A program made the translations under genes and the position numbers. Positions 34,001-54,315 of a DNA stretch of 64,000 bases are shown here, in pieces. This stretch comes from an uncultured Bacteroidales bacterium. Lineage in GTDB: Bacteria > Bacteroidota > Bacteroidia > Bacteroidales > TTA-H9. The number at the start of each line of letters is the position of its first letter. Position 1 is the stretch's first letter. The notes beneath the pieces were generated by a model. It had not been told where the DNA came from. It did not search any database and saw nothing but the letters and a program-made list of their open reading frames with translations. The stretch lies in the NCBI GenBank assembly GCA_964444785.1, contig CAYUII010000005.1:101500-165499 (forward strand). The letters are read 5' to 3'.

Positions 34001-35497
34001 ATGTTTACTAGTAAGATAAACACTAACTTATTGAGTATGTTAAGGTTGATTTTTTTATTACTTCTTGTGGTATTCTCATCAATGATCTATGGGCAGGAGA
34101 TGCCAGGAATGACCATGAGCAATTATCAGGCATATAATTCAGCATTGATTAATCCTTCGGCTCCAATTCATGCAAAGACCTATTTAGATGTTAATCTTTT
34201 TGGCTTAGATCTCTTTATCGACAATACCAGTGCGAATATCCCGGGTAAGGGATTTGCATGGTATGATCTTTTAAAGAGTGGATACGAGATGCCTAAGTAT
34301 GGTCCTTATGAACGTCCATTGGAGGTGAATACCAGTTCACCGCTACATAGAGCTTATGTAAGTCAACGGTTAATGTTACCTGGATTTGTTTATATCGATC
34401 GAACCATCTCATATGGTCTTTTTTTATCTCACCGTACAGTCGTTTCGGCAAGAAGGGTGCCCTATGAAATGGTAAACTTTGGTTATTATGACTTGTCATA
34501 TTCTCCGCAACAAAACATGTTATATCATGACTATGATATACGAATTGCCGGATTAAGCTGGAGTGAGGTAGGGTTTAATTTTGCTAAGACCGTTAAATAT
34601 AGGCGATTCAGTATTGTTAATGCCGGTATAACTCTGAAAAGGTTGTATGGTGCTGCTGCAGCTTTTGCGACTGTGGATGACATAAAGTATATTGTATACA
34701 ATGATTCGACTATCGATATCAAAAATATTAAAGGGAAGCTCGCCTTTTCTGGCCCTTTGAACTATCAGTCTAATGAGTATGATAGTGATGCGGGACCTTT
34801 TACTGGTTCTGGATTTAGTTTAGATCTTGGAGTCACCTTTATTAAGACCAAAAAAGAGGTTAGTAGGATTTATTCGGGGCCAGTGTGTGCATGGCAGTTT
34901 ATTCCTTATGATTATAGATTGGGTTTATCATTACTCGATATAGGCTATATTCGCTTCAATGAAAATGCCCAAGTACATACCTTCGAAAATAGCGGGCACT
35001 ACTGGGAAGAATTTAATAAGTTCCAACCTGTTAATATTTCTGATGCCTTAAGAGAGGTTAGTCAGCGACTCTATGGAGATGTGGAAAAATCTTTAACAGA
35101 TTCTTCTTTTACTGCTCTTCTCCCCTCAGCTTTTAGTGCTCAATTCGATTATCATCTAAAAAACAACTATTACATTAATACATTGTTGGTTCAAGATCTG
35201 CCCATACCTGGAAGTTACAGAGCTCCACGTGAGTCTTATTTGTCGGTGACGCCTAGATATGAAACCAGAGCTTTTGAAGCAAATCTGCCATTTATCTTTT
35301 ATGATTGGAGAAGACCTCGGGTAGGACTTTCATTTCGATTCTATAGTTTCACTATTGGAACGGATAAGTTAGGTACTTGGTTAGGAATGGGTGATGTATA
35401 TGGAATGGATATTTATCTTTCTTTACGGCTAGCATGGCTGAAAGGATTTTGTAAAGAGAAAAAGGAGAAGCACCCTTGTGGGGAGTTTCAGTTCTAA
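34001..35497 (+). CDS. DUF5723-like outer membrane beta-barrel protein
   Basis: Signal peptide (alternative ATG 34037); SNYQAYNSALINPS, GSGFSLDLG, LGLSLLDIGYI; aromatic-rich strands. Confidence 0.7.
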   Translation: MFTSKINTNLLSMLRLIFLLLLVVFSSMIYGQEMPGMTMSNYQAYNSALINPSAPIHAKTYLDVNLFGLDLFIDNTSANIPGKGFAWYDLLKSGYEMPKYGPYERPLEVNTSSPLHRAYVSQRLMLPGFVYIDRTISYGLFLSHRTVVSARRVPYEMVNFGYYDLSYSPQQNMLYHDYDIRIAGLSWSEVGFNFAKTVKYRRFSIVNAGITLKRLYGAAAAFATVDDIKYIVYNDSTIDIKNIKGKLAFSGPLNYQSNEYDSDAGPFTGSGFSLDLGVTFIKTKKEVSRIYSGPVCAWQFIPYDYRLGLSLLDIGYIRFNENAQVHTFENSGHYWEEFNKFQPVNISDALREVSQRLYGDVEKSLTDSSFTALLPSAFSAQFDYHLKNNYYINTLLVQDLPIPGSYRAPRESYLSVTPRYETRAFEANLPFIFYDWRRPRVGLSFRFYSFTIGTDKLGTWLGMGDVYGMDIYLSLRLAWLKGFCKEKKEKHPCGEFQF

Positions 35498-35727
35498 GTT
35501 TTTTCTATGTAGAGAAAATAAATTATACATTTGGTTAAAATTTATTAGATATAAGTTTGCTTAAATTATGACTGTAGCAAAGGTGTGCATGTGATACGTA
35601 ATAAGTAATTTAGCATTATTATTTGATCATTTAACGGAGCTTTTAAAGTTTGATTTAGATATTCAAAAAGTAAAAAAATCAGTTGGAGAATGATTTACTT
35701 TAAAAAAAAATTGCTAAAATTGCGTCG

Positions 35728-35915
35728 AACTCATGCTATAGATATTAATTTAGCGGATGAAATGACCTTCATGAGTTGTTAAGCATCATCTGGGCACTTT
35801 AACAACGAAGACATACTTACAAATGCAAATAGACCTTCCCTTACGGACTTCAATGTTGTGAACCAACCTACTGAGAAGTCTGATACTTAACAAAGGCAAA
35901 ACTTTAAATTGATTA
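35728..35915 (+). ncRNA. Candidate structured ncRNA (rod-like, 6S-like) upstream of HU
   Basis: 35776-35788 TTGTTAAGCATCA pairs with 35881-35893 TGATACTTAACAA (12/13); ACAAC-GAAG (35802-35810) pairs with CTTC-aat-GTTGT (35848-35859); 35744-35752 pairs with 35905-35913; promoter-like TAAAATTG at 35715-35722; no ORF. Confidence 0.4.
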
Positions 35916-36076
35916 GATAATACGTTTTGTTTCTTTATAAATCTTACAGAAGTAGAATTTACGTTGTATTCATGATATCTTGATATCTGAAAGTAATATC
36001 GAATATCGCAACATAAATTAGTATTCTTTGTTAACTAACCAACATTCAAACCTAACTTTCAAAAAACCATAGCAGG

Positions 36077-36346
36077 ATGAACAAACAAGATTTGATTGAC
36101 GCAATGGCCGCTAACTCCGGCATTACAAAAACCGAAGCAAGGGTTGCTTTGGAGAGTCTGGTAGACGCTATGAGAAGCGCTCTAAAGGGTGGTGATACCA
36201 TCTCTTTAACTGGTTTTGGCTCTTTCCAAGTAGCTGAGCGCTCAGCGCGTACAGCCCGCAATCCTAAAACTGGTGAGACTATTAAGGTTGATGCCCGTAA
36301 AGTTGTAAGATTTAAACCTGGTTCAAATTTAAAGGAGGGTTTATAG
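36077..36346 (+). CDS. hup: DNA-binding protein HU
   Basis: MNKQDLIDAMA, GFGSFQV, RTARNPKTGE, RFKPG. Confidence 0.96.
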   Translation: MNKQDLIDAMAANSGITKTEARVALESLVDAMRSALKGGDTISLTGFGSFQVAERSARTARNPKTGETIKVDARKVVRFKPGSNLKEGL

Positions 36347-36367
36347 TCCTACAGTTTAATAGCTAAT

Positions 36368-36395
36368 AAAAAACCGGCACTTAGCCGGTTTTTTT
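36368..36395 (+). terminator. Intrinsic terminator of hup
   Basis: AAAAAACCGGC-ACTTA-GCCGGTTTTTTT. Confidence 0.85.
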
Positions 36396-36457: not shown

Positions 36458-36505
36458 TATAAGTGATTAATTATACTGATCTATAGGTGATTAATTATAC
36501 TGATC
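36458..36505. repeat. 24-bp tandem duplication
   Basis: TATAAGTGATTAATTATACTGATC followed by TATAGGTGATTAATTATACTGATC (23/24 identical). Confidence 0.9.
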
Positions 36506-36736
36506 TTACAGCTCTGACCTTTGTGAGATGTTTGATGGGTAACGAGTCATACTAAAAGAGTACACTGAATTTTAGAAACAGTTCCCAATACTTTTCATAG
36601 GTCATGTCAGACCAATGTATCAAAAGATGTCGATATTGATAGATCTGAAGCTGGCAAAAGATGACGGAAGCAACCGTCATGGCGATTACGCTATAGCGCC
36701 TGAGACTGTTTTTTTCTGAATGCAAAAAATAGCTTG

Positions 36737-54240: not shown

Positions 54241-54315
54241 GGGTTGTTAACTCAGTTGGTTTAGAGTGCCACCTTGACAGGGTGGAAGTCACTGGTTCGA
54301 GTCCAGTACAACCCA
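54241..54315 (+). tRNA. tRNA-Val (GAC); CCA not encoded
   Basis: Acceptor GGGTTGT/ACAACCC, D-arm ACTC/GAGT, anticodon stem CCACC/GGTGG with loop TT-GAC-AG, T-arm ACTGG-TTCGAGT-CCAGT; promoter TATCTTTG at 54215-54222. Confidence 0.97.

Follow-up and report, generated by a model that had tools for sequence, protein, structure and literature searches.

In Escherichia coli, cspA carries a long leader with a 5' 'cold box' and hupB is cold-induced, and in Bacillus subtilis the stability of the hbs mRNA depends on its leader. The locus described here resembles these systems in outline, in that a conserved element would lie at the extreme 5' end of the leader and the gene behind it encodes a small abundant nucleic-acid-binding protein, and control of a similar kind, on mRNA stability or on translation, is plausible by analogy. 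Unlike the cspA, hupB and hbs leaders, to which it has no sequence similarity, the locus gives no sign of temperature or autoregulatory control. To our knowledge, the Bacteroidota lack Shine-Dalgarno initiation and Hfq and have few curated RNA families; without Shine-Dalgarno initiation, the output platform of a leader must differ from that of cspA, hupB and hbs. Post-transcriptional control in this phylum is poorly charted, and the leader offers a concrete, testable candidate.

The median 5' UTR in Bacteroidota is 24–32 nt, and in Flavobacterium psychrophilum 64 structured 5' regions have been mapped, structured 5' regions without Rfam hits being documented (PMC9723704). Against that median the leader proposed here is exceptional, with a length of about 349 nt in the window (the whole stretch of 64,000 nucleotides that was analysed) and about 331 nt in a sister clade, counted from the predicted transcription start site. 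It shares with the F. psychrophilum regions its length, its conserved local hairpins, the lack of an Rfam match and an arrangement that runs from a putative sigma-A-type promoter to the start codon. In contrast to those regions, which are transcript-mapped, it is known from sequence, the gene that it precedes is an HU paralog, and it belongs to one uncultured genus. Its reach is narrow (that one genus, with about five lineages), and it is moderately interesting but ordinary in kind.

The locus had been described in a first-pass annotation as an ORF-free gap of about 580 nt upstream of an HU gene, and this description holds. The gap (35498–36076, 579 nt) contains no ORF of 60 aa or more, and the short ORFs within it, of 20–37 aa only, are not conserved in the alignment. 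Its surroundings are as follows.

34001–35497, plus strand: DUF5723 gene, the left flank of the gap
36077–36346, plus strand: hup, a genus-restricted paralog encoding an 89-aa HU-family DNA-binding protein (Pfam PF00216, E 6.6e-33)
36368–36394, plus strand: intrinsic terminator of hup, consisting of a stem of 11 bp rich in G+C and a T run behind it, conserved in the congener G001

The gap is probably made up of a promoter and a long, partly structured, cis-acting 5' leader of this genus-specific hup paralog, and the element is put forward as a candidate cis-regulatory leader motif of one uncultured genus, backed by about five lineages. The proposal that the gap holds a cis-regulatory leader of hup had already been made in the first-pass annotation and stands in general, in view of the conservation of the promoter box, the invariance of the 5' module from the predicted start site onwards, the covarying plus-strand hairpins and the lack of a terminator before hup. 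The switch that had been proposed with it, between a 5' hairpin and a long stem, is unsupported, since the clades do not share the long stem.

The HU protein itself is confined in the same way as the element upstream of it. Searches with HU proteins covered the genomes of the family, genome contigs, metagenome contigs and 5.8 billion proteins. In G001, which is the only congener in the species collection (labelled 'Sphingobacteriia bacterium MS_R2_22'), the hup protein is 97% identical to that of the window, and from there identity drops to nothing above 62% among the 5.8 billion proteins. The closest non-orthologous HU proteins are 59–62% identical and are products of canonical HU genes located elsewhere, for example linked to fmt or to citrate synthase. 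The second HU of the genome under study (G000) is such a canonical, fmt-linked gene (C9:114861–115118, L025), whose product is 45% identical to the window HU. The motif GTTAACTAA recurs in the proximal 5' leaders of the window hup, the fmt-linked HU gene and the canonical HU genes with short leaders found throughout the family.

A DNA search of 41 relatives found the locus in G001 only. Look-ups of the exact proteins recovered at least 20 further hup loci in metagenome assemblies, together with one JGI contig (L114); the count is a lower bound, the look-up having covered 48 of 182 index blocks with entries for the two HU proteins (24 for each). Samples in which the genus occurs include SRR10566893, SRR14932491 and ERZ28615923. 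The loci, all with identical gene order, fall into two clades, a window-like clade W and a G001-like clade G, the latter consisting of three well-separated lineages (L206; L207, L210 and L211; L208). The main alignment (A5) comprises 12 sequences from the two clades, and a second alignment (A6) contains clade G alone; both were made with MAFFT. Only about five independent lineages from one genus are represented, so the covariation statistics are thin. A covariance model of the 5' module (R1) matches this genus only, in 2 of 151 genomes sampled from the order and 2 of 13 from the family, and the module is present as a single copy in the genome. The element and the HU paralog are thus found only in this genus.

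Conservation between the two clades is distributed very unevenly. Identity is highest in the proximal leader (89–93%) and is 77–80% in the 5' module, where a 1-nt alignment shift reduces the value. The third codon positions of the HU gene are 67–75% identical. The middle segment (35827–36020) has an identity of 45–48%, equal to that of the untranscribed upstream spacer, of which about 200 nt are 42–48% identical and hence unalignable.

At the upstream edge of the conserved region lies a promoter-like sequence. The sigma-A promoter consensus of Bacteroidota consists of a -33 element TTTG and a -7 element TAnnTTTG (PMC9723704). The spacing expected between the two elements was taken as 19–21 nt and the transcription start site (TSS) as about 6–8 nt past the -7 box.

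35700–35723, plus strand: promoter-like box TTAAAAAAAAATTGCTAAAATTGC, 24 nt, conserved in all 11 distinct sequences from the two clades
35724–35727, plus strand: four hypervariable nucleotides between two invariant blocks, with the variants GTCG, GGTG, GGCG, TTCA and CACA

The sole difference within the box is an alignment-edge column at its first base. The box contains TAAAATTG (35715–35722), an invariant 7/8 match to the -7 consensus, and the four hypervariable nucleotides would fit a spacer that separates such a box from the TSS. Conservation resumes exactly at 35728, the predicted +1, and transcription would start at about this position, just past the A-tract and the TAAAATTG box. What counts against the promoter, and with it against the leader, is that the -7 box departs from the consensus at one position and that the -33 region (TTTA or TTTG at a spacing of 17–22 nt) is not conserved.

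Closer to the gene, inspection of the sequence found no TAnnTTTG box near hup or before the proximal leader, and TATTCTTTG, considered as a proximal hup promoter, was rejected for its wrong spacing and its lack of conservation. A search for terminators found no terminator-like site between 35498 and 36076, including the neighbourhood of 35915. The putative leader lies between the promoter-like box and the co-oriented hup ATG at 36077, an interval with no terminator, and, as there is neither a terminator between box and hup nor a sigma-A-type box near hup, the simplest arrangement is a single transcript of about 35728–36394.

Several other features around the box were considered. A perfect TAnnTTTG box, TAAGTTTG, is present at 35551–35558, just past the stop codon of the DUF5723 gene; it is kept in clade W and is not found in clade G, and could be either a clade-specific extra promoter or a chance occurrence. 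A 30-aa ORF on the plus strand (35690–35782), which overlaps the box and P1, has been annotated as a gene in several metagenome contigs. In clade G an indel and a premature stop codon disrupt it, so that it is almost certainly a gene-calling artefact. The SAM-II long-loop riboswitch model (RF01726) gives weak matches at the box, at 35679–35727 of the window (21.7 bits) and at 1119–1169 of L207 (17.8 bits), far below the gathering score of 44. These matches stem from a AAAAAAAUGCUAAA-like run in the promoter box, which resembles the AAAAAAAUGCUAAA tail of the model. The P1 stem of the riboswitch is unpaired and would lie in non-conserved DNA upstream of the box, and the gene downstream is unrelated to methionine or SAM. 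The resemblance is regarded as a chance A-rich match.

The block that begins at the predicted start site, termed the 5' module (35728–35813, about 85 nt), is almost invariant and contains three features.

35728–35777, plus strand: P1, in which AACTCATG (35728–35735) pairs with CATGAGTT (35770–35777) around a conserved 34-nt loop
35778–35803, plus strand: P2, GTTAAG/TTTAAC (35778–35783/35798–35803) with a variable 14-nt loop
35802–35813, plus strand: invariant ACAACGAAGACA, the same in all sequences

P1 corresponds to the competing 5' hairpin of the first-pass annotation, and its 8-bp stem is indeed perfect and overlaps the proposed long stem by 2 nt. Of its 50 positions 44 are invariant, the variable ones (35738, 35739, 35756, 35763, 35766 and 35768) all being in the loop; the stem never varies and so cannot be judged by covariation. 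As an RNA helix it is thermodynamically weak, with pair probabilities of 0.01–0.43, and its weakness and invariance both count against the leader. A reading of P1 and the adjacent T-run as a terminator on the minus strand was rejected, as the T-run starts 10 nt past a stem that has a 34-nt loop. The P2 stem is kept in all sequences, with 92% of cells paired, and the only changes within it are U-A to U-G and G-U to A-U. Its pair probability is 0.05–0.65. The 5' module as a whole does not fold more stably than expected to any marked degree (z = -0.46 against shuffles).

Conservation at the level of sequence, as found in the 5' module, would fit protein binding at the DNA level equally well. Block A (35700–35783) might accordingly be conserved as DNA, as a compound promoter and operator in which AACTCATG-N34-CATGAGTT, and perhaps a 6-bp palindrome CTNNAG, bind a regulator, with the true TSS further downstream, for example after TAATTTAG at 35746–35753, which likewise agrees with the -7 consensus at 7 of 8 positions. 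The block is conserved in sequence without covariation, the 34-nt 'loop' is itself conserved and P1 is weak as RNA, all of which suit an operator, as does the retention of the palindrome as CTATAG, CTTAAG and CTCGAG in three of the four lineage variants (p of about 0.05, an estimate). We nevertheless regard an operator as doubtful. The changes in P2 are of the wobble type and compatible only with a plus-strand RNA, and the four hypervariable nucleotides fall exactly at the position of a spacer between -7 box and TSS. Moreover, CTCATG-N25-45-CATGAG has 4 matches in the genome where about 4–5 are expected (an estimate), which gives no regulon.

Downstream of the 5' module, the leader reading draws support from two hairpins, followed by a conserved region that leads into the gene.

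35844–35882, plus strand: P3, in which CGGACTTC or CGGACUUC (35844–35851) pairs with GAAGTCTG or GAAGUCUG (35875–35882), present in the minimum free energy (MFE) fold of the window
35963–36012, plus strand: P4, a composite hairpin, GTTGT..GATAT.TTGATAT, loop, ATATCGA.ATATC.GCAAC, aligned by sequence alone
36024–36076, plus strand: proximal leader with the translation initiation region, invariant and A/C-rich, TTCTTTGTTAACTAACC...AAACCTAACTTTCAAAAAACCATAGCAGG

In clade G, P3 is a helix of 12–14 bp (CAGACAA.../...TTGTCTG). Within this clade alone, the unfitted MAFFT alignment A6 has 88% of its cells paired, as against 26–52% in slid controls, and contains three compensatory pairs, one column showing C-G, G-U and A-U; values as high as these are attained by between 6 and 15 of 500 shuffles. 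When a covariance model is derived from clade G sequences only, it places the P3 of the window in an identical register, with 23 bits and an E of 0.29. When the window is added, the number of compensatory pairs rises to six (including U-A to A-U twice), a value reached by 0 of 500 shuffles on an alignment that is model-fitted. The between-clade alignment of P3 was given by the covariance model alone and was not reproduced with MAFFT, also with lowered gap penalties. Every lineage favours P3 on the plus strand by a wide margin (for example -15.6 kcal/mol, against -3.5 kcal/mol for the minus strand, and -9.6 against -2.8 kcal/mol for the consensus), an asymmetry that results from G-U pairs and that argues for a plus-strand RNA running through 35844–35882 rather than for a DNA palindrome.

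The consensus fold of P4 on the MAFFT alignment has a z of -4.0 to -5.3 against column shuffles (2 of 200), and 86.6% of cells are paired, a proportion that falls to 20–55% when the arms are slid. Its covariation is modest, with one pair varying as U-A, U-G and C-G and two wobble changes that are compatible with the plus strand only. Compensatory changes on the sense strand are hence found in P3 and, more weakly, in P4. Set against these local signals, the full leader has no excess folding stability (z = +0.29 against shuffles), which counts against the leader.

The two hairpins also bear on whether the conserved 5' part might be an RNA in its own right. The 5' module (35728 to about 35830) could be an independent or 5'-UTR-derived trans-acting sRNA, with hup either read through or separately transcribed. 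It has its own invariant promoter box, its strong sequence conservation over about 100 nt is as expected for a seed-bearing sRNA, and it is a single-copy, genus-specific element. An sRNA is nonetheless unlikely: downstream of the module there is neither a terminator that is conserved nor a 3' hairpin that is stable, and the hairpin found just downstream of it in G001 is missing from the window and from L206. Moreover, P3 and P4 covary on the plus strand further downstream, so that transcription seems to continue, and no alternative promoter for hup is visible.

The remaining explanation, which the first-pass annotation had placed beside the leader, is a divergent 6S-like RNA. A rod-shaped RNA of 170–190 nt (35728–35915) would mimic open promoter DNA and sequester RNA polymerase. 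The pairings on which it was based can all be found. The outer helix, H1 (35744–35752/35905–35913), has 9 bp with one G:U, the long central stem, H2 (35776–35788/35881–35893), has 12 of 13 positions paired and the inner helix, H3 (35802–35810/35848–35859), consists of ACAAC/GTTGT and GAAG/CTTC around a 3-nt bulge. The locus also has a length similar to that of 6S (RF00013) and 6S-Flavo (RF01685), and a set of imperfect long-range helices can be drawn for it as for them. Furthermore, neither model locates a 6S gene in the genome, which is 97% complete, the search of the whole of G000 with RF00013 and RF01685 giving no match at E up to 1, and any 6S RNA that this lineage may have has diverged beyond the reach of current models.

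The energy of the interval gives the rod no support. RNAfold gives -27.9 kcal/mol for 35728–35915 and a mean of -27.91 kcal/mol for shuffles (z = 0.00, with 96 of 200 shuffles as good), and the minus strand has z = -1.14. The rod helices alone account for -11.4 kcal/mol, and the best fold that contains the rod reaches -23.3 kcal/mol, which is 4.6 kcal/mol above the MFE. Base-pair probabilities of the rod helices are 0.02–0.17 in the window and 0.00 for all three in clade G. Of 300 dinucleotide shuffles of the A/T-rich gap, 68 (23%) contain an inverted repeat of 13 nt, within 200 nt, that has no more than one mismatch.

The comparison of the two clades is equally unfavourable. The part of the rod that should be kept together with its 5' half is the following.

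35848–35859, 35881–35893 and 35905–35913, plus strand: 3' arms of the three rod helices, not a conserved feature

In clade G, MAFFT puts an 11-nt gap over the 3' arm of H3, and by a hand count on A5 only 6 of 13 pairs are left in H2 and 5 of 9 in H1. The 5' arms are conserved because they lie inside the conserved 5' block. No covariation is found in the rod, the 3' half of which is deleted or unpaired in the sister clade while the 5' half is kept, and the column-shuffle test of the consensus fold over the whole of 35728–35915 gives z = -1.28. The hairpins that are kept in both clades are, moreover, mutually exclusive with the rod: P2, which has wobble changes only, takes the 5' arm of the central helix, and P3, with its compensatory changes, uses the CTTC that H3 requires.

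Rfam offers no rescue for a 6S assignment. At gathering thresholds the only hit in the window is a tRNA at 54241, with no 6S or 6S-Flavo match; a scan of 35450–36120 at E up to 10 found no 6S and only sub-threshold noise (SAM-II, mir-7360 and isrJ), and a permissive scan of the G001 leader likewise found no 6S and only sub-threshold noise. In contrast to 6S and 6S-Flavo, the locus has no model match, no excess stability, no terminator of its own at about 35915 and no co-conservation of the two rod halves. Unlike a housekeeping RNA, it is confined to one genus, and its place is between a putative promoter and a gene of the same orientation. A folding energy no better than that of shuffles and a rod without covariation are two of the three findings that the first-pass annotation had itself set against a 6S-like RNA, and by these the rod is refuted; we give next to no credence to RNA polymerase sequestration at this locus. 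The rod is a chance set of A/U-rich complementarities inside the putative leader, and on comparative grounds the locus can be ruled out as the missing 6S gene of the genome.

Returning to the cis-acting leader, its order from the 5' end would be the 5' module (P1, P2 and ACAACGAAGACA), a fast-evolving linker, P3, P4 and the unstructured A/C-rich initiation region, and its effect on the hup mRNA would most likely be exerted in cis. The 5' module may be a recognition site for a factor, whether protein or ligand, or may serve as a 5'-terminal stabiliser, and P3 and P4 may be structural or RNase-related elements. A connection between the two conserved ends is suggested by AACGAAGA (35804–35811), which can pair with TCTTTGTT or UCUUUGUU (36025–36032) over 8 bp with one G-U, and through which access of the ribosome at the start of the initiation region might be controlled. 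Both sides are invariant, so variation provides no test of the pairing. The AACGAAGA/TCTTTGTT pairing forms part of the window MFE with a probability of 0.39, a value that is at most 0.11 in the other sequences, and a manual check of A5 found no extension of the AACGAAGA/UCUUUGUU helix that is conserved between lineages. A more far-reaching scheme, which must be considered improbable, would make the 5' module the sensor of a new riboregulator, with P3 and P4 as its scaffold. The sensor would be an HU-binding autoregulatory site, an RNA thermosensor or an aptamer, and would gate the Shine-Dalgarno-less translation of the HU paralog via the pairing with the initiation region.

Two observations concern the DNA downstream of hup. 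A 57-aa ORF on the minus strand (36552–36725) is, by comparison with L198 and with L207 (1955–3270), the C-terminal remnant of a 439-aa membrane-protein gene without a Pfam hit. G001 and the clade W contigs L198, L199, L200, L202, L203 and L205 have an intact copy of this gene between hup and rluA, and the window, L196, L197, L201 and L204 have lost it by deletion, a presence/absence polymorphism within the species. Closer to the hup terminator, GTGATTAATTATACTGATCT is found at 36462–36510 as two tandem copies in the window and as one copy in the close relatives L197 and L198, so the duplication in the window is recent and lineage-specific.
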